Shown: piece by piece, positions 3,543 through 54,604 of the stretch
Layout of the letters: the number at the start of each line of letters is the position of its first letter
Position numbering within the stretch: the first letter of the stretch is position 1
UHGV virus genome: UHGV-0184235
DNA from: a virus
Direction: 5' to 3' (one strand)
Length of the DNA: 54,604 nt
Notes under the pieces: generated by a model
What the model was told of the DNA's origin: nothing
Databases searched by the model: none
Seen by the model: the letters and a program-made list of their open reading frames with translations, nothing else
Made by a program: the position numbers and the translations under genes

Positions 3543-3830
3543 ATGGAAATCGTAAAAATTGAAATGAACCTGAAAGCAGTGAATAAAGAATTGGCTGTAT
3601 TCAACTGCGAGAAGAAAGTATCAGGCGTTATTCATTCAGCCGAAACGGGTGCGGTCACGGTCATTCTCGACGGTGGCTATGTATTCGGCAAGTTCGACTG
3701 TCCTCTTTGTGCTGTAGAGGCAATTTCAATGCTGTCCGTGAAAGTAAGTGATGGCGATAACGCCGGGTTTGGTAACTACCGAAGCTACAAACTCGATTAC
3801 TCAGAAAAAGTTTTCAGCACCGTTCATTAA
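3543..3830 (+). CDS. hypothetical protein (95 aa)
   Basis: Clean ORF followed by a GC hairpin (GCCCAC-CGAA-GTGGGC) at 3838-3853. Confidence 0.5.
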   Translation: MEIVKIEMNLKAVNKELAVFNCEKKVSGVIHSAETGAVTVILDGGYVFGKFDCPLCAVEAISMLSVKVSDGDNAGFGNYRSYKLDYSEKVFSTVH

Positions 3831-3975
3831 GCGAAAGCCCACCGAAGTGGGCCCGCTATGTCCGGCCTCACCGACCAAAGCGAACCGGACATTCTACCAG
3901 GTAAATCAGAGGTGTTATTAAAGCACCTCTTATCTACACGGTATTAATTCTACACAATTTATTGAGGATAAAGCA

Positions 3976-6942
3976 ATGAGTGGAACTAATCCTGTATTTT
4001 TAGTCCGCAAAGCAAAGAAATCATCAGGCCAGAAAGATGCAGTTCTCTGGTGCAGCGATGATTTTGAAGCGGCAAATGCCACACTGGATTATCTCCTGAT
4101 TAAATCCGGCGCAAAGCTGAAAGATTATTTTAAAGCTGTTGCCACTAATTTCCCTGTCGTTAACGAATTGCCGCCGGAAGGCGAACTCAGCTTAACGTTC
4201 TGCGATTTCTACCAGCTCGGCAAAGACAACATGACCTGGGTACAGATCCCCGGTGTTACGTTGCCCTCTTCTGAGACCGTTGACGCCGCCCGTCAGCGTA
4301 TCGTTGATGGTGTTGATACCGAAACAGGTGAAGTGCTGGAAGATCACACGGAAGATTTTGGCAATGAAGAAGTTGCCAATACCGAAACTGACGAAATTAC
4401 CCAGCACGAACAGGCGTCAACTGAAGACAATGACGATCGACCTGAACACCCTCAGTTAACCGTTGTGGCAACGATGCCCTTCCGTCATCGCGTTCTGGCT
4501 CAACATATTGGCGATGGCGAGTATCTCTATCATGTCGATGCAGAGCAGAAAAAAGCAATTCTCGCTCTGGAAATGGACACAGATAACTCATATGTCCAGA
4601 ACCTTTTACTTGCCGCCGAGAATGTTGAACCATTCAAAAAGGCCATTGAACACGACATCCATAAAGTGGTGAATGCCGTTAAGAATGTGTTTCCTGCCGA
4701 TGGCAAAATCCCTGAGCTGGCAAGCGTTATCCAGTTTCTGAAAACATGGTTCGATACCCCTCATATTGATCGCGGGCTGCTCGTTAAAGAGTGGTGCAAA
4801 GGTAATCGTGTATCAGCTATTCAGCGTACTGAAAGCGGCGCGAACGCTGGCGGCGGAAACAAAACAGACCGCAACCCGGATTATGTCCACACGCTGGATA
4901 CGCTTGATCAGGAAATCGCGCTGGCCACCCTGCCGATGGATTTTAATATCTATGAATTACCTGGTAGCGTTTATCGTCGCGCGAAAGAAATCGTTAAGAA
5001 AAAAGAAAGTCCATTCAAAGAATGGTCCGCAGCACTTCGCGCAACACCGGGTATCCTGGACTATTCCCGCGCCGCTATTTTTGCGCTTATCCGTGGTTCT
5101 GGTGACAACGTTCATCATTTTCCTGACAGCTTACGCAGATACATTAATTCCAACCTGACAGAAATTAATCACGAGAAACCGTCCGCAGAAACTCTGACCG
5201 CCGCCCGCCATGCACCAGAAAAAGACGCAGTGGAAGAAGCTAACCGCCAGCTTGCTGCTGAGCGCGGCGAGTATGTTGAAGGTATCAGCGACCCGAATGA
5301 TCCGAAATGGGTGAAGACTGATGCAGGTAAGCAGGAAGCCGAACCAGAACTGGTGAAAAAGGTTGCCGCAGGCATATTTGACGTTTCTGCTCTGATGCAG
5401 AACTCCTCAACTCATGGCACAAAACAGGAAGCGGAGACCACCAGCGATGTGCAGGTTCAAGAAACTGACGGTAATGAAGAACAGACTGGTGATGCGCTGC
5501 TCGCAAGCGAAAGTGATTTGGGGAATGGTGAAGAGGCAGATACCGGCGAGCAAGCCGATGTAGACCACAATCAGCCGGAAGTGAGCCAGAACAACGATTC
5601 TGCAAGCCATTCTGAGCCAGAAGCGCAACAGGAAGAACCAATGCCAGTGTGGCCGGAATACTTCGAGCCGGGGCGTTATGAAGGCGTACCGAACGAGGTA
5701 TATCACGCGGCGAATGGCACCAGTTCGACGATGGTAAAAGATGCCCGGGTATCGCTGATGTATTTCGAGGCGCGCCACGTATCCAAAACCATCCAGAAAG
5801 AACGCACCAAAGTCCTGGATATGGGGAATCTGGTGCACGCGCTGGCATTACAGCCTGAACAACTGGAAAAAGAATTCAGCATAGAGCCGGAAATCCCGGA
5901 AGGCGCGCTCACGACGACAGCGACGATCCGCGCGGTTATCGACGAACACAACGCCAGCCTGCCGGCATTACTCACCGCAGACGATATCAAAGCGTTGCTG
6001 GAAGAGTACAACGCCACCCTGCCCGCGCCATTACCGCTTGGGGCATCCGTTGACGAATCGTATGCATCATATGAGCAATTGCCTGAAGAGTTCCAGCGTA
6101 TTGAGAACGGAACCAAGCATACCGCCACAGCAATGAAGGCCTGCATCAAAGAGTACAACGCCACCCTGCCGCCGCAGCTGAAAAACAGCGGAAGCCGTGA
6201 TGCGCTGCTTGAGCAACTGACGATCATCAATCCTGATCTCGTTGCACAGGAAGCGCAGAAGCCACAGCCGTTGAAAGTATCCGGCACCAAAGCGGATCTG
6301 ATTCAGGCAGTGAAATCCGTCAAACCTGAAACAGTATTTGCCGACGAGCTGCTTGACGCTTGGCGCGAAAACCCCGGCGATAAAATCCTGGTTACCCGCC
6401 AGCAGTTGAGCACCGCACAGGCCATCCAGAAAGCGCTACTGAATCACCCGACCGCCGGGAAGCTGCTGACGCATCCGAACCGCGCCGTAGAGGTGAGTTA
6501 TTTCGGTATTGATGAGGAAACCGGGCTGGAAATCCGCGTGCGGCCAGACCTTGAAATTGACATGGGAGGCCTGCGCATCGGCGCTGACCTGAAGACTATC
6601 AGCATGTGGAATATCAAGCAGGAAGGCCTGCGCGCCAAACTGCACCGGGAAATCATTGAGCGCGATTATCACCTGAGCGCTGCCATGTACTGCGAAACCG
6701 CAGCGCTGGACCAGTTTTTCTGGATATTCGTCAACAAAGACGAGAACTACCACTGGATCGCCATCATCGAGGCATCCGAAGAACTGCTTGAACTCGGCAT
6801 GCTGGAATACCGCAAAGCAATGCGCGCCATAGCGAACGGGTTCGACACTGGCGAATGGCCAGCGCCGATTACCGAAGATTACGCCGAAGAACTCAACGAT
6901 TTTGATGTGCGCCGCCTTGAAGCGCTTCGCGTACAAGCCTAA
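3976..6942 (+). CDS. recE: RecE-like exodeoxyribonuclease VIII (988 aa) with a C-terminal PD-(D/E)XK (YqaJ-type) nuclease domain
   Basis: GAGGA SD. The C-terminal 260 aa carries the motif RPDLEID...ADLKT...E.K and precedes a RecT-like gene. The long acidic N-terminal region is not conserved. Confidence 0.7.
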   Translation: MSGTNPVFLVRKAKKSSGQKDAVLWCSDDFEAANATLDYLLIKSGAKLKDYFKAVATNFPVVNELPPEGELSLTFCDFYQLGKDNMTWVQIPGVTLPSSETVDAARQRIVDGVDTETGEVLEDHTEDFGNEEVANTETDEITQHEQASTEDNDDRPEHPQLTVVATMPFRHRVLAQHIGDGEYLYHVDAEQKKAILALEMDTDNSYVQNLLLAAENVEPFKKAIEHDIHKVVNAVKNVFPADGKIPELASVIQFLKTWFDTPHIDRGLLVKEWCKGNRVSAIQRTESGANAGGGNKTDRNPDYVHTLDTLDQEIALATLPMDFNIYELPGSVYRRAKEIVKKKESPFKEWSAALRATPGILDYSRAAIFALIRGSGDNVHHFPDSLRRYINSNLTEINHEKPSAETLTAARHAPEKDAVEEANRQLAAERGEYVEGISDPNDPKWVKTDAGKQEAEPELVKKVAAGIFDVSALMQNSSTHGTKQEAETTSDVQVQETDGNEEQTGDALLASESDLGNGEEADTGEQADVDHNQPEVSQNNDSASHSEPEAQQEEPMPVWPEYFEPGRYEGVPNEVYHAANGTSSTMVKDARVSLMYFEARHVSKTIQKERTKVLDMGNLVHALALQPEQLEKEFSIEPEIPEGALTTTATIRAVIDEHNASLPALLTADDIKALLEEYNATLPAPLPLGASVDESYASYEQLPEEFQRIENGTKHTATAMKACIKEYNATLPPQLKNSGSRDALLEQLTIINPDLVAQEAQKPQPLKVSGTKADLIQAVKSVKPETVFADELLDAWRENPGDKILVTRQQLSTAQAIQKALLNHPTAGKLLTHPNRAVEVSYFGIDEETGLEIRVRPDLEIDMGGLRIGADLKTISMWNIKQEGLRAKLHREIIERDYHLSAAMYCETAALDQFFWIFVNKDENYHWIAIIEASEELLELGMLEYRKAMRAIANGFDTGEWPAPITEDYAEELNDFDVRRLEALRVQA

Positions 6943-9887: not shown

Positions 9888-10941
9888 TCTACCCAAGAAC
9901 CTCACCTATCGTAAAAATGACAGAGCGTTTTACTGGCGTAATCCGCTGACTAAAAAAGAAATTGCGCTGGGGCAAATTTCCCGCAGGGATGCGGTCGCAC
10001 AGGCGATCGAGGCCAACAACTTCATCGCGCAGAATTACACCCCTGTTGCGCTGATTGAAAAACTTAAAGGTCTGGACTCGCTTACTGTCACAAAGTGGAT
10101 CGAGCGCTATGAGGTACTGTTACAGCGTCGTAATCTGTCGGTGAACACATACAAGATTCGTGGCAACCAGTTAGCGACTATACGGGACAAGATGGGCGGA
10201 ATGCTCCTGGCGGAAGTGACCACAAAGCATATTGCTACGTTTCTGGAAACATGGATTGAAGGAGGGAAAAATACTATGGCGGGAGCAATGCGATCTGTCT
10301 TATCAGATATGTTCAGGGAGGCGGTTGTTGAGGGGCATATAACACAGAATCCGGTTGAGCCAACCCGCGCCCCAAAAATCGAGGTTGCGCGTGATCGTCT
10401 GAGACTGGACGTGTATAGAAAAATTCGTACAGCAGCAGAGAAACTGCCGACATGGTTTCCTCTGGCTATGGATCTCGCGTTGATCACTGGTCAGCGTCGC
10501 GAAGATGTTTCCTGCATGCGATTCAGTAATATTATTGATGACCGTCTATATGTAAAACAGATTAAAACGGGGATGAAAATAGCGTTACCGTTGTCGCTCA
10601 GTCTCCCATCCGTCGGCCTGCGCCTCGGAACGGTGGTCGATCGCTGCCGACTTGTGAGCAGGACTGACTATCTGATCAGCGCCGGGGTCAGGAAGAACAG
10701 CCCGGACGGGAGTATTCACCCTGACAGCCTGACGAAAAAGTTTGTCGCTGCCAGGAAATTAACTGACATTGCATTCAGCGAAAACCCGCCGCCGTTTCAT
10801 GAAATCCGCAGCTTGTCCGGGCGACTGTACAAAGATGCCTACGGTGAAGATTTCGCCCAGAAACTGCTGGGGCATACATCAGAAAACACAACAAAAATGT
10901 ATCTCGATGAGCGTGATGAAAAGGCGTATATGATGCTCTGA
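9862..10941 (+). CDS. int: tyrosine integrase (lambda Int family, 359 aa)
   Basis: N-terminal arm-binding domain, core-binding region, and a C-terminal catalytic region with HEIRSL...LLGHTSENTTKMYLD. Confidence 0.9.
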   Translation: MSQKRYDANLPKNLTYRKNDRAFYWRNPLTKKEIALGQISRRDAVAQAIEANNFIAQNYTPVALIEKLKGLDSLTVTKWIERYEVLLQRRNLSVNTYKIRGNQLATIRDKMGGMLLAEVTTKHIATFLETWIEGGKNTMAGAMRSVLSDMFREAVVEGHITQNPVEPTRAPKIEVARDRLRLDVYRKIRTAAEKLPTWFPLAMDLALITGQRREDVSCMRFSNIIDDRLYVKQIKTGMKIALPLSLSLPSVGLRLGTVVDRCRLVSRTDYLISAGVRKNSPDGSIHPDSLTKKFVAARKLTDIAFSENPPPFHEIRSLSGRLYKDAYGEDFAQKLLGHTSENTTKMYLDERDEKAYMML

Positions 10942-35754: not shown

Positions 35755-35845
35755 CGTCAACCTCGTCTCGTTGCTCGTCAGGTTATTAGTGGCAGGCGGT
35801 GACGATGCCGCTTTTCGGGAGCTACCCTAGCCACTGATTATTTTA

Positions 35846-43273: not shown

Positions 43274-43349
43274 TGGTGCTGATTGACGGAATCGAACCGC
43301 CGACATCCTGCTTACAAGGTAGTTGCTCTACCTACTGAGCTAAATCAGC
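43274..43349 (-). tRNA. tRNA-Thr(UGU)-like gene with a poorly paired anticodon stem
   Basis: 76 nt with encoded CCA, a good acceptor, D arm and T arm (GGCGG-TTCGATT-CCGTC), and anticodon loop CTTGTAA. It is very similar to my recollection of E. coli thrU, but only 3 of 5 anticodon-stem pairs form. Confidence 0.45.
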
Positions 43350-45230: not shown

Positions 45231-45437
45231 TCACCCCCAGCCTTTTTGTCGGAAGGTTCTCGGCGTCCGCGCCGGACGTTCGCACTCTTGTAATTTCGCG
45301 CTGACCGTCCAGGTAAGGAAATCAGGGTTGAGGCTTTTTTCGGTCCTGATACCGCGAGCCCGATAATCGGCAATCAGGCGCTCTGCCTGCTCGGTGGTGC
45401 ATTCCGTATGGTGAAAATATGAATACTTCATCGCCAT
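45231..45437 (-). CDS. small hypothetical nin-region protein (68 aa)
   Basis: The start is coupled to the upstream stop. Confidence 0.4.
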   Translation of the reverse strand: MAMKYSYFHHTECTTEQAERLIADYRARGIRTEKSLNPDFLTWTVSAKLQECERPARTPRTFRQKGWG

Positions 45438-46036
45438 CACCCCGCAAAGCTCATAAGCTGGGCGGCGGCGTTCTCGGCCTCTTCCCTGCTGTTGAAGGTA
45501 CGGGACAAGATCCAGCGCCACAGGACATCGAGCGCGGCCTTATAGAGGTGCTGGAATTCGGTTTCGTCCATACTGGCGAACGCGATGCTGCGAGGGTGTT
45601 TGCGGAGCGTGCCATCTGGTAACTGGATGGCGTCAAAGTGACCGGCCTCGACAGTTACCCAGGCGCGGTATGCATCAAAGGATTTACACAGGCTGATTCC
45701 GTTCGTGATACGGCGACTGGCGATCTGCTCCAGATACTGCTCGGCAGCATCCAGCAGAGCGCTTTCATTGCCGCCGTATGAGGCAAGGAATCTGGCATAA
45801 CCATTCACCAGTTTTCGCTCGTTAGCTGATATGGCGCCGCCCGTTGGTTCCCAGTATTCGAATCCAAGATTCAGGAGCGCAAAGAAACGGCGATGAAACG
45901 CCGGATTGCGGACAAGCTTAAAGTCGGCAACCAGAACGGAGCCGAGCTTGCATTTTGATTGCAGAAAATCACTGGTCTCCGGCGTAGCGGGGATCAGTAT
46001 TCCGGTTGACTGCTTAATGAGTTGTAATTGCGCCAT
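45437..46036 (-). CDS. hypothetical nin-region protein (199 aa)
   Basis: Clean ORF with a GGAG SD. Confidence 0.5.
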   Translation of the reverse strand: MAQLQLIKQSTGILIPATPETSDFLQSKCKLGSVLVADFKLVRNPAFHRRFFALLNLGFEYWEPTGGAISANERKLVNGYARFLASYGGNESALLDAAEQYLEQIASRRITNGISLCKSFDAYRAWVTVEAGHFDAIQLPDGTLRKHPRSIAFASMDETEFQHLYKAALDVLWRWILSRTFNSREEAENAAAQLMSFAG

Positions 46037-46073
46037 GGTTGTTCACTCCGTGGCGCAGCAGGTTAACGGCTGT

Positions 46074-46322
46074 TCAGACCGTTGATTTCATATTATCAGA
46101 AGGTGGCGTTACCCGGTAGCCGAGACGGCGAATAAATTGCATAAAGCCATTGGGAGTAAAGACTTCTTCATCATCCAGCAAAGGCCGCATGGAAACCATG
46201 CCATTTACACGATAAATAAGATGCCTGCCCGACGAAGGAAAGCTAAACACCACGCAGCCGTCAGACCGTCTTACAATGTCATACCAGTTATCTTCTGACG
46301 TTTGCAAAGCTGAATTACTCAC
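46074..46322 (-). CDS. hypothetical protein (82 aa) downstream of dinI, a candidate LexA-controlled antirepressor by position
   Basis: It is co-oriented with the dinI homologue, 117 nt downstream of it, with no terminator between them. Confidence 0.4.
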   Translation of the reverse strand: MSNSALQTSEDNWYDIVRRSDGCVVFSFPSSGRHLIYRVNGMVSMRPLLDDEEVFTPNGFMQFIRRLGYRVTPPSDNMKSTV

Positions 46323-46439
46323 ATTCTGTTCTCCCTTCGAGCGACATACAGACGCGGTTAAAAATTGTCGGCAGCAGCATCAAAGGGATACGCAAATTGC
46401 GGTATTCTGAAAAAATGCGCGCCAGCCCCAATCGCAATG

Positions 46440-46673
46440 TTAGTAAAACCAGTCGTCAGCGCTTTCCCAGGTATCCTGGAGGATCTTTTCAATTTTCTTT
46501 TTATCGTCCTTATCGCCACCGAAAACGCTCAGCCCATCTGATCCTGCGCGACGGATTGTCAGGCGGCAATTCTCATACTGATCATTTAGTCGTTTAAGTA
46601 ATTCTTTTTCCAGTGCTGGCACTGCACCATCAGGAAGTTTCTTTGTTCGATCAATAGTTAACTCAACTTTCAT
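46440..46673 (-). CDS. dinI: DinI-family protein
   Basis: MKVELTIDRTKKLPDGAVPALEKEL...ILQDTWESADDWFY aligns with E. coli DinI (MRIEVTIAKTSPLPAGAIDALAGEL...ILQETWESADDWF). GGAGG SD. Confidence 0.8.
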   Translation of the reverse strand: MKVELTIDRTKKLPDGAVPALEKELLKRLNDQYENCRLTIRRAGSDGLSVFGGDKDDKKKIEKILQDTWESADDWFY

Positions 46674-46691
46674 AGTGGCCTCCACTGCGCA

Positions 46692-46711
46692 TACTGTGTT
46701 TTTATACAGTA
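46692..46711. promoter_or_regulatory. canonical LexA (SOS) box overlapping the dinI -10
   Basis: The minus strand reads TACTGTATAAAAACACAGTA, which fits CTGT-N8-ACAG and the consensus TACTGTATATATATACAGTA. It overlaps a TATACT -10 element. Confidence 0.7.
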
Positions 46712-46808
46712 TACCTATAAAACGAAATGATCAACGTTTTAAGAGCACAAATTGTTAACCTGTAGACACTAATACACGCCTTTCAATTCCGTGATACAAA
46801 TCACTTTA

Positions 46809-46831
46809 ATTGTACCCATTTTGTAGGTACA
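46809..46831. promoter_or_regulatory. 7-bp perfect inverted repeat TTGTACC-N9-GGTACAA, a candidate operator in the promoter region of the + strand cluster
   Basis: It lies 40 bp upstream of ATG 46871 and overlaps a TACAAT -10-like hexamer. Confidence 0.35.
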
Positions 46832-46870
46832 ATTTATTTAACGAACAGGAACAATCAAAAAGGACACATC

Positions 46871-47419
46871 ATGACGATTTACGCAGTGACCAGGCAAAAA
46901 AATGCCGAAATGACAATGTTCAACATGGGCGATCGCGTGGTGGACCTGAACGGGTTTGTCGAGCTTGCAGGGCTCGGAGAGTCAGCAGAGGCCGCAAAAA
47001 TCAGCGCCGTGCAGTTCTATGAAGATCAATCATGGAATGGCGAGGATTACGTTGATGTATCAGTCCATTCCCCACTTGTTAATAACGTCAGGAAACTCTC
47101 TGATTCTCTCGAAAGTCACTACAGAAACGGTGAGGAAGCCAGAGCTATTGTTAACGCATACATCACCGAAACTGAGCACGAGTGGCGGCCAGCAACTGAA
47201 TCTGAAATTCAGGCAGACATGAAAATCAGCCTGTTTCAGTACCTGATACCGTTCTTTTTCATTAACGGCGACGGCGATGTTGATTATCTTCCGATAGTCG
47301 GTGACAACTTCCCCTATGGCGCGCGCGTCGGAACGGATGAAGATGTGATGGCATTTATCCGCGAAAACCATCGTTCTAATCGTGCGTTCATGTACGACGA
47401 AGTTAACGATCTGGATTAA
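46871..47419 (+). CDS. acidic hypothetical protein (182 aa), in the opposite orientation to the surrounding nin genes
   Basis: Clean ORF. The AT-rich upstream region contains the inverted-repeat operator. Confidence 0.55.
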   Translation: MTIYAVTRQKNAEMTMFNMGDRVVDLNGFVELAGLGESAEAAKISAVQFYEDQSWNGEDYVDVSVHSPLVNNVRKLSDSLESHYRNGEEARAIVNAYITETEHEWRPATESEIQADMKISLFQYLIPFFFINGDGDVDYLPIVGDNFPYGARVGTDEDVMAFIRENHRSNRAFMYDEVNDLD

Positions 47420-47421
47420 AT

Positions 47422-47760
47422 ATGACTGAACTCGACCTGAGAAAACTCAGCAAAAAGGCTTTGCTTCAGTTAATTTCTGAAGCCGCAAACGAGCTGCACC
47501 GCCGTGAATCCTCATCTTCTTTTGTCGAACCGGCCGCAGCAGAAGAGACTGCCCTGTCACCCGGACAGGCCGATCTGGTTTTTATTAATAACTGCCTGAA
47601 CGCAAGTGATTATGTGCATGCTGATGCAAAAGACCGATACAAACAGTTAGCATCTAAATACTCAGCGTGGTTCGCGTACAAGGGATATCCGCGAGATTTG
47701 CGTGGTTCAGACCTCAAAAAATGGAAACAGTATTTCAGGCCCAACACGAGAGAACAGTAA
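47422..47760 (+). CDS. hypothetical protein (112 aa)
   Basis: Its start is 3 nt after the upstream stop. Confidence 0.5.
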   Translation: MTELDLRKLSKKALLQLISEAANELHRRESSSSFVEPAAAEETALSPGQADLVFINNCLNASDYVHADAKDRYKQLASKYSAWFAYKGYPRDLRGSDLKKWKQYFRPNTREQ

Positions 47761-47945
47761 TGCAGCTTAAACAGTACATTGATGATCACTTTGGGGGGAA
47801 TAAATCGGAGTTTGCCCGGGTGATGGGGGTCAGACGAGACAAGCCGAATCGCTGGATCTCTGAAGGCTGGATAGTCGTTGACGGAAGGCTCTACAGTCCA
47901 CAGCGAGAGATACCGGAGAAAAATGAATCCCCCTCGATGCTTTGA
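47760..47945 (+). CDS. lambda-Cro-family DNA-binding protein (61 aa), an orphan copy
   Basis: LKQYIDDHFGGNKSEFARVMGVRRDKPNRWISEGWIVVDGRLY parallels lambda Cro ([45 protein letters not shown]). The ATG overlaps the TAA of the upstream gene. Confidence 0.5.
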   Translation: MQLKQYIDDHFGGNKSEFARVMGVRRDKPNRWISEGWIVVDGRLYSPQREIPEKNESPSML

Positions 47946-47999
47946 GAGGGATTATACATCACAGTAGGGCTGCTTTACGCTCTGCTGGGAATTTAGGCA

Positions 48000-53754: not shown

Positions 53755-54297
53755 TCACATGACACCCGGCGCTATGGCCGCGATACCACTCAGAACCTGA
53801 ACGACAGCATCACCCGGCAACATATTCAGCAGATGCTCAATCCCTTCCCTGACCTCTTTCACCAGCTGATGCTTTGGCGCATTCAGCATTACGGCCTGTT
53901 TCGCCTCGCTGATTTCCTTCTCCATCGCTGCAAAACGCGTCATGAAACAATCCTGTCCGATAAGACGCCCACGAAATTCCAGCGGTAAAACAGCCAGAAT
54001 CGCCGGAGTCAACTGGCGGATGTTTTCGCGCGCATATCCGGTGTCGCTGTCCAGCCAGCGGAAAAGCTTCTGCCGCTTACGGCTCAGGTCGTCAGGAAAA
54101 TCCAGCCCGGCGCCGCCCTGCCGTTCCCATTCTTCAACGATGATCCCGGCAACTACGTCCTGGTTGTCCAGCGATGCCGACCACGCACGAACGGCAGCCC
54201 GAATCTGGTCATGCTTATCCGCCGGATCAGGCTGATTGCGATTTATCATCGTGTCCGGAGGAAACCCGGTATTTTGTTGAAATGAAATTGAATGCAC
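53755..54297 (-). CDS. YdaT-family protein (occupying the cII position)
   Basis: LTPAILAVLPLEFRGRL matches my memory of YdaT LIPAILAILPRELRHRL. GTG start with a GAGGG SD. Confidence 0.65.
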   Translation of the reverse strand: MHSISFQQNTGFPPDTMINRNQPDPADKHDQIRAAVRAWSASLDNQDVVAGIIVEEWERQGGAGLDFPDDLSRKRQKLFRWLDSDTGYARENIRQLTPAILAVLPLEFRGRLIGQDCFMTRFAAMEKEISEAKQAVMLNAPKHQLVKEVREGIEHLLNMLPGDAVVQVLSGIAAIAPGVM

Positions 54298-54299
54298 GG

Positions 54300-54533
54300 T
54301 TACGCCCTCGCTTCCTGCGCCGGTAATCCATCCGTTGGGTTCGGATACAGATCAGGGCGCAATTCGTGGGGAGTAACACCGGTTATGCTGTGAATTTTTA
54401 ATATGTAATCTGGCGGCACAATGCCTCTGTCGCGATGTTTCCAATGGCTAATTGACATACTGGTTACACCAAGTGCCATGCTTAGCTTTCTCGCTGAACC
54501 AGCGGCCTTAATTGCTTTATCAAGTGCTGTCAT
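54300..54533 (-). CDS. Cro/YdaS-like HTH regulator
   Basis: The KLSMALGVTSMSISHWKHRDRGIVPP HTH pattern and the first-gene position of the rightward early operon. Confidence 0.7.
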   Translation of the reverse strand: MTALDKAIKAAGSARKLSMALGVTSMSISHWKHRDRGIVPPDYILKIHSITGVTPHELRPDLYPNPTDGLPAQEARA

Positions 54534-54604
54534 TTTCTTCTCCTGACTATCAACGAAGAAAGTAAACCACAGATTTATATTTCAAGCAATATTCAATTTA
54601 TTGA

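Follow-up and report, generated by a model that had tools for sequence, protein, structure and literature searches.

In the Gifsy prophages of Salmonella, induction depends on a small ORF with a GUG or UUG start codon that lies between dinI and irsA (Lemire et al. 2011, PMC3121763). The antirepressors encoded by these ORFs in strain ATCC14028, namely GftA from Gifsy-2, GfoA from Gifsy-1 and GfhA from Gifsy-3, are under LexA control and suffice to bring about induction; the antirepressor associates with the repressor in its uncleaved form, and none of the repressors GfoR, GfhR and GtgR is cleaved during induction (PMC3121763). GfoA is cotranscribed with dinI under the control of LexA, binds GfoR and is able on its own to induce both Gifsy-1 and Gifsy-3 (PMC3121763, PMC5322425). 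It inactivates both GfoR and GfhR, whereas GtgR reportedly does not respond to it (PMC3121763). The dinI-irsA region is also conserved in prophages of Citrobacter, Escherichia, Klebsiella and Enterobacter (PMC3121763).

The mechanism of LexA-controlled antirepressor induction of Gifsy-type prophages is therefore already known, having been established in 2011. Here we describe a locus with the same organization in the virus genome UHGV-0184235, of which a stretch of 54,604 nucleotides (hereafter the window) was analysed. The locus very probably represents a working Gifsy-type SOS induction module, in which a LexA-controlled orthologue of GfoA would inactivate a non-cleavable repressor, and it probably belongs to a lambdoid prophage of Citrobacter koseri. 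The Gifsy-like layout suggested by the initial annotation recurs gene for gene: the LexA box is followed by dinI, by a small gene with a non-ATG start and by an irsA/DUF1367 homologue, and the repressor is short and devoid of an S24 domain. For comparison, 392 relatives of the GfoA family were identified in IMG/VR and the best 80 loci were fetched.

The closest counterparts are the GfoA/GfoR and GfhA/GfhR pairs of Gifsy-1 and Gifsy-3, with which the locus shares a LexA box over the -10 element, dinI, an antirepressor gene with a non-ATG start and irsA/DUF1367, as well as a short repressor without S24 whose C-terminal half is near-identical. It differs from them by its apparent host (Citrobacter instead of Salmonella), by the start codon of the antirepressor (GTG instead of TTG) and by the presence of YdaS- and YdaT-type genes at the cro and cII positions. 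The GftA/GtgR (GftR) pair of Gifsy-2 likewise has an antirepressor gene between dinI and irsA, a LexA-controlled promoter and a shared spacer, but GftA has 73 aa and no significant similarity to the 82-aa protein of the window by BLASTP (E=0.72 against GftA of LT2 Gifsy-1/2), and GtgR is only 27% identical overall to the window repressor. At the level of sequence, the locus has all the features of a GfoA-type module, and the repressor lacks what defines the S24 type.

More distant parallels exist. Coliphage 186 encodes Tum, an antirepressor under LexA repression whose target is a repressor that is not cleavable and to which a DinI-like sequence is linked; Tum has 146 aa and is a fusion in which the DinI-like part forms the C-terminus, and PSP3 and Fels-2 have split tum and dinI genes. 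By its layout the locus is similar to this system, combining a putative LexA-repressed antirepressor, a predicted non-cleavable repressor and a linkage to DinI, but in the window dinI stands as a gene of its own and occupies the first place. In the cryptic prophage Qin of E. coli, the Rem/DicA pair also consists of a small antirepressor relieving a short repressor similar to DicA and GfoR. Iterated searches starting from GfoA led to Rem, and no LexA control is reported for the pair (bioRxiv 10.1101/2023.04.14.536235). In our hands, an hhalign comparison of Rem as a single sequence with the GfoA-family profile gave a probability of 5.8%, which is not significant.

The dinI promoter and its LexA box

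A scan of the 54.6 kb of the window for sites with at most three mismatches to TACTG(TA)5CAGTA returned a single LexA (SOS) box, TACTGTATAAAAACACAGTA, at positions 46692-46711, with 0.00 sites expected from shuffled sequences at the same threshold. It is read on the minus strand, which is the coding strand of dinI. The CTGT/ACAG arms are perfect and the three mismatches all fall in the AT-rich centre. The near-consensus SOS box over the -10 of dinI noted in the initial annotation is thus a solid feature of this DNA, and its position is that of the Gifsy-2 box.

The dinI-antirepressor promoter, as read from the sequence, is sigma-70-like. It consists of a -35 hexamer TTGATC (46729-46734, minus strand) and a candidate -10 TATACT (46708-46713, minus strand) that covers the first four bases of the LexA box, with a spacing of 15 nt. 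This spacing is short, which speaks somewhat against a functional module, although that of Gifsy-2 is equal. The -35 hexamer is conserved in related loci and aligns without gaps with TTGAAT of the Gifsy-2 promoter PdinI and with TTGATC of mEp237, and the window, Gifsy-2 of LT2 and mEp237 share the promoter stretch AGGTATACTGT without any difference. PdinI of Gifsy-2 is mitomycin-inducible, and replacement of its LexA box abolishes mitomycin induction (PMC3121763); the identity of AGGTATACTGT to this inducible promoter hence supports the promoter context of the window. Among the best 80 of the 392 relatives, a CTG-N10-CAG box is present 5' of the dinI ATG in every locus (80/80), and in 79 of these 80 loci the LexA box has the same position; it varies in its centre and is conserved in its arms.

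Organization of the dinI operon

The first gene of the operon codes for a DinI homologue of 77 aa (46440-46673, minus strand; Pfam DinI E=3.1e-26). Its start is the ATG at 46673, preceded by the ribosome binding site GGAGG at 46679-46683, and the upstream GTG at 46685 is not the real start; the same 77-aa dinI was called in the source annotation of a near-identical Citrobacter koseri contig. An over-extended dinI of 130 aa (989-1381) is annotated in the Klebsiella phage ST974-OXA48phi18.2 (L089, MK448237.1), where the annotated ORF contains, 120 nt into its length, the LexA box TACTGTTTGTTTATACAGTA; the true start must therefore lie downstream of the box.

The second gene is the 82-aa antirepressor candidate (46074-46322, minus strand), which is followed after a gap of 37 nt by the third, an irsA/DUF1367 homologue (45437-46036, minus strand; Pfam DUF1367 E=7e-95). 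The arrangement with dinI 5' and DUF1367 3' of the antirepressor gene is found in 80/80 loci (the best 80 of 392 relatives). The operon is oriented in the early-right direction, upstream of the YbcO, RusA, YlcG and Q genes, a position identical to that in Gifsy phages.

The spacer that separates dinI from the antirepressor gene is 117 nt long (46323-46439, minus strand). No terminator-like site was detected on its minus strand, in line with the earlier proposal that the 82-aa gene follows dinI with no terminator in between. It contains no consensus promoter either, and both results would fit a joint transcript of dinI and the antirepressor gene. Its nucleotides are more conserved than those of the flanking genes, being 87-92% identical to the Salmonella loci, as compared with 74-78% for dinI and 67-80% for irsA, and its core, GCTGGCGCGCATTTTTCAGAATACCGCAATTTGCGTATCCCTTTGATGCTGCTGCCGACAAT, hardly varies. 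In Gifsy-2 the spacer likewise precedes the very different gftA (92% over 101 nt). No Rfam family matched in or near the operon, either at the gathering threshold over the whole window or at an E-value of at most 1 over 45900-46900, and with a fold z-score of -0.35 the predicted folding of the spacer is on a par with that of shuffled sequence. This lack of excess folding energy and of any Rfam match gives no support to a structured RNA. It is conceivable, if rather unlikely, that the spacer harbors an unrecognised cis-acting element, RNA or DNA, gating the expression of the antirepressor. Such an element could for example impose a threshold or a delay between the onset of the SOS response and the commitment to lysis.

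An ORF of 21 codons (MLLPTIFNRVCMSLEGRTECE; 46320-46385, minus strand) has a TGA stop that shares nucleotides with the GTG start of the antirepressor gene (GTGA). A role of this ORF in translational coupling was considered and rejected. A TAG ends this ORF earlier in mEp237-type loci and it is longer in Gifsy-2, and because its length is not conserved a coupling role is improbable.

The 82-aa protein as an orthologue of GfoA

The antirepressor gene starts with a GTG at 46320-46322, with the ribosome binding site AAGGGAG at 46331-46337, 8 nt upstream. In all 80 loci examined (the best 80 of 392 relatives) the start codon is GTG or TTG, and never ATG. The identity of the gene was established by homology and by means of published primers. 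The annealing part of pp866, the forward cloning primer of gfoA (GTAATTCAGCTTTGCAA), matches exactly at 46302-46318, corresponding to codons 2-7. Two Salmonella-type loci (L054 and L075) match exactly pp866, both gfoR primers (le144 and le145) and the 20-nt core of pp867, and also match the gfoR C-terminal tagging primer. The 82-aa protein of the window is identical to the antirepressor allele of these two loci at 78 of 82 positions (95%). The full 22-nt pp867 together with primer le163 indicates that GfoA of strain 14028 ends in ...PPSDI; the last residues of the reference GfoA hence differ from those of the L054/L075 alleles, and the window protein ends in ...PPSDNMKSTV. On this basis the 82-aa protein is, by sequence, an orthologue of GfoA, the Gifsy-1 antirepressor. 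Its earlier designation as an antirepressor candidate stands and is strengthened by the exact pp866 match and the 95% identity, but the label "untested" no longer applies to the family, GfoA having been tested experimentally.

GfoA homologues of lower identity (38-72%) were found directly after dinI, behind a LexA box, in Klebsiella phages, in the Salmonella phage SPN3UB and in the Citrobacter phage Chris1. The relationship with GftA is more remote. GfoA and GftA have been stated to be distantly related (PMC3121763), and comparison of a narrow GfoA profile with GftA by hhalign gave a weak probability of 19%, whereas a profile including distant representatives reached 87% against the GftA family (E=3.8e-6, 54 columns). 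The sequence P0082 bridges the GfoA-type and GftA profiles. The GftA family itself is small, and searches started from the GftA side yielded no bridge to GfoA. The comparison with the two Gifsy antirepressors that had been proposed as a check is accordingly positive in both cases, directly for GfoA and at the profile level for GftA. In sequence terms the 82-aa protein would be only a remote homologue of GftA, outside the GftA subfamily.

AlphaFold2 predicted four strands and one helix for the 82-aa protein, with modest confidence (pLDDT 67, pTM 0.39). A Foldseek search of this model against the PDB retrieved nothing (best E=5.6), and against BFVD only an uncharacterised homologue at 60% identity. 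The predicted structure and the fold searches thus lend no independent support to the function and provide no link to an antirepressor fold.

Repressor and immunity region

The window opens with a reading frame on the plus strand (1-420) that is open from its first base and codes for a repressor of the GfoR/GfhR family. Comparison with relatives indicates that translation probably begins at the ATG at position 31 (MRKEEP...), which gives a protein of 129 aa (31-420). Pfam recognised only HTH_3 (E=3e-8) and Phage_CI_repr in this ORF. No S24 peptidase was matched in it by Pfam at E<=0.1, and the approximately 65 residues that follow the HTH are too few for an S24 domain. A PDB sequence search with the repressor returned only spurious matches to polyubiquitin. 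The initial annotation, which described a repressor with an HTH and without an S24 autopeptidase domain, was right on both points, and only the start has been corrected to 31.

Among the fetched loci, GfoR (MKEKTHQIN...RIRTRED) and GfhR (MTKVKHH.../...MSRRIKGEGA) were identified via published primers. The window repressor is 56% identical to GfoR overall and 63.5% in the C-terminal half, and 74% identical to GfhR overall and 89% in the C-terminal half; GfoR and GfhR are 56% identical to each other, with 65% in the C-terminal half. Since GfoR and GfhR share only 56% identity and are nevertheless both inactivated by GfoA, the window repressor lies inside the tested range. GtgR, far more divergent, has in common with the window repressor the motif LLxLxxQLPExE. 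The related repressors display several types of N-terminal HTH, and their helical C-terminal half is nearly invariant, which suggests that the antirepressor may recognise this conserved half. If the C-terminal half is the target, one antirepressor would be able to induce heteroimmune prophages. The N-terminal HTH half of the window repressor differs from those of Gifsy-1 and Gifsy-3, so that its immunity specificity is probably different.

A homologue of the window repressor (56-98% identity) is encoded on the opposite strand in 65 of the 69 loci that have at least 7 kb of upstream sequence among the best 80 of 392 relatives, which indirectly supports the predicted binding of the repressor by the antirepressor. 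Four loci are exceptions: L056 carries GtgR, and L030, L060 and L085 have no repressor homologue despite long upstream sequences. L060 and L085 seem to be prophages that have undergone rearrangement or truncation and not counter-examples, and inspection of the upstream region of L030 revealed no recognisable repressor. L056 (IMGVR_UViG_2724679262_000001) associates an antirepressor (10001-10246) that is 94% identical to that of the window with a repressor (3785-4198) that is 100% identical to GtgR. This locus possibly arose by recombination and may thus have an antirepressor unable to induce its own prophage.

At the other end of the window, a cro-like gene of the YdaS family (54300-54533, minus strand; Pfam YdaS_toxin E=4e-14, P22_Cro E=9e-4) is followed on the minus strand by a gene of the YdaT family in the cII position (53755-54297; Pfam YdaT_toxin E=8e-48) and by O/P-type replication genes. 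The end and the start of the window are contiguous in the related locus L009 (positions 1276|1275), indicating that the window is circularly permuted, with the cut between cro and the repressor; the repressor (plus strand) and the cro-like gene (minus strand) are therefore adjacent and divergent. This pair is located approximately 8 kb upstream of dinI. The cut falls inside the intergenic region between the two genes (54534-54604 joined to 1-30), and the operators of the immunity region are consequently split across the two ends of the window.

Proposed mechanism and alternatives

In the lysogen, host LexA bound to the box over the -10 of PdinI would keep the dinI-gfoA-irsA operon off, and the 129-aa HTH repressor would hold the divergent early promoters shut. 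Upon DNA damage, RecA would be activated and LexA would cleave itself, whereupon PdinI would fire and DinI, the antirepressor and IrsA would be made. The GfoA orthologue would be synthesised at a low rate, which we propose to result from its GTG start. It would then bind the repressor, itself presumably unable to self-cleave because the S24 domain is missing, and strip it from its operators, leading to lytic development. The case for these steps operating in this phage is made by orthology with the Salmonella systems.

The module could be present without driving the induction of this prophage, owing to a defective promoter or a defective antirepressor-repressor pairing, or because it acts mainly by crosstalk in trans. 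Several observations point this way: in strain D23580, one SNP in the -10 of PdinI-gfoA is enough to leave Gifsy-1 non-inducible (PMC5322425), the Gifsy antirepressors work in trans on non-cognate repressors (PMC3121763), and L056 has a GfoA-type gene beside GtgR, the repressor reported as GfoA-insensitive. Moreover, the LexA box is directly preceded in Gifsy and mEp237 by a rho-independent terminator, a context that is replaced in the window by a plus-strand module of ORFans. We nonetheless consider a non-driving module improbable, as the context of the -10 and the LexA box is identical to that of functional promoters, the antirepressor shares 95% of its residues with the Salmonella allele, and the repressor is in its C-terminal half 89% identical to GfhR, a proven target of GfoA. 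These same features favor a working module in which the GfoA orthologue inactivates the resident repressor.

Homology with the relatives is lost at about 46773, roughly 60 nt upstream of the LexA box. The ORFan module comprises three plus-strand genes coding for proteins of 182, 112 and 61 aa (46871-47945), lies between the early-right operon and PdinI, and is absent from 80/80 loci (the best 80 of 392 relatives). Among 5.8 billion proteins, the 182-aa protein occurs in just one cluster, which is from Citrobacter koseri. For the 182-aa and 112-aa ORFs there is no match in PADLOC, PHROGs or Pfam, and the only match of the 61-aa protein is phrog_10103, with no assigned function. The promoter region of the module (46774-46870) contains a perfect 9-bp inverted repeat, AATTGTACC-N9-GGTACAATT (46808-46834), that may be an operator. 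Beyond the module, a terminator-like hairpin on the minus strand (47926-47953), with a stem of 10 pairs followed by a T run, would be expected from its sequence to end early-right transcription upstream of the dinI operon.

The 182-aa protein (46871-47419, plus strand), which adjoins the LexA box region and has no known function, had been put forward as a possible antirepressor instead of or besides the 82-aa protein. This proposal is not sustained and retains a very small probability. The gene is on the opposite strand and outside the LexA-controlled operon, with its start codon 160 nt from the LexA box and a promoter-proximal inverted repeat of its own, and it occurs in none of the 80 loci (again the best 80 of 392 relatives) that keep the system.

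Least credible of all, to the point of being negligible, is a lambda-like induction by RecA-stimulated autocleavage of the repressor, with a dinI operon that only modulates the SOS response: this default expectation for a lambdoid phage found no support, as against a 129-aa repressor without S24, the lack of any match at E<=1 in any frame of the window when LexA, UmuD and lambda CI were used as phmmer queries, and the uncleaved state of the homologues GfoR, GfhR and GtgR during induction (PMC3121763).

Annotation of the GfoA family and additional features

The assignment of the 82-aa protein is mainly of value for annotation. The GfoA family has no Pfam family, corresponds to phrog_340 and phrog_1813, both without function, and is labelled "hypothetical protein" at NCBI. 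As a result, prophages carrying it are likely to be mis-scored as having no SOS induction route, and the gap concerns 392 relatives in IMG/VR alone. The co-occurrence data further single out the repressor's conserved C-terminal half as the likely target of the antirepressor, which would be useful for studies of crosstalk between prophages.

Rfam searches detected three further elements in the window, all on the minus strand: the Hfq-binding small RNA isrB in the early-left region (3832-3919; 71.8 bits, with a gathering threshold of 35), an int-alpA RNA (35773-35837; 42.8 bits) and a tRNA gene (43277-43349) located just 3' of the Q antiterminator gene.
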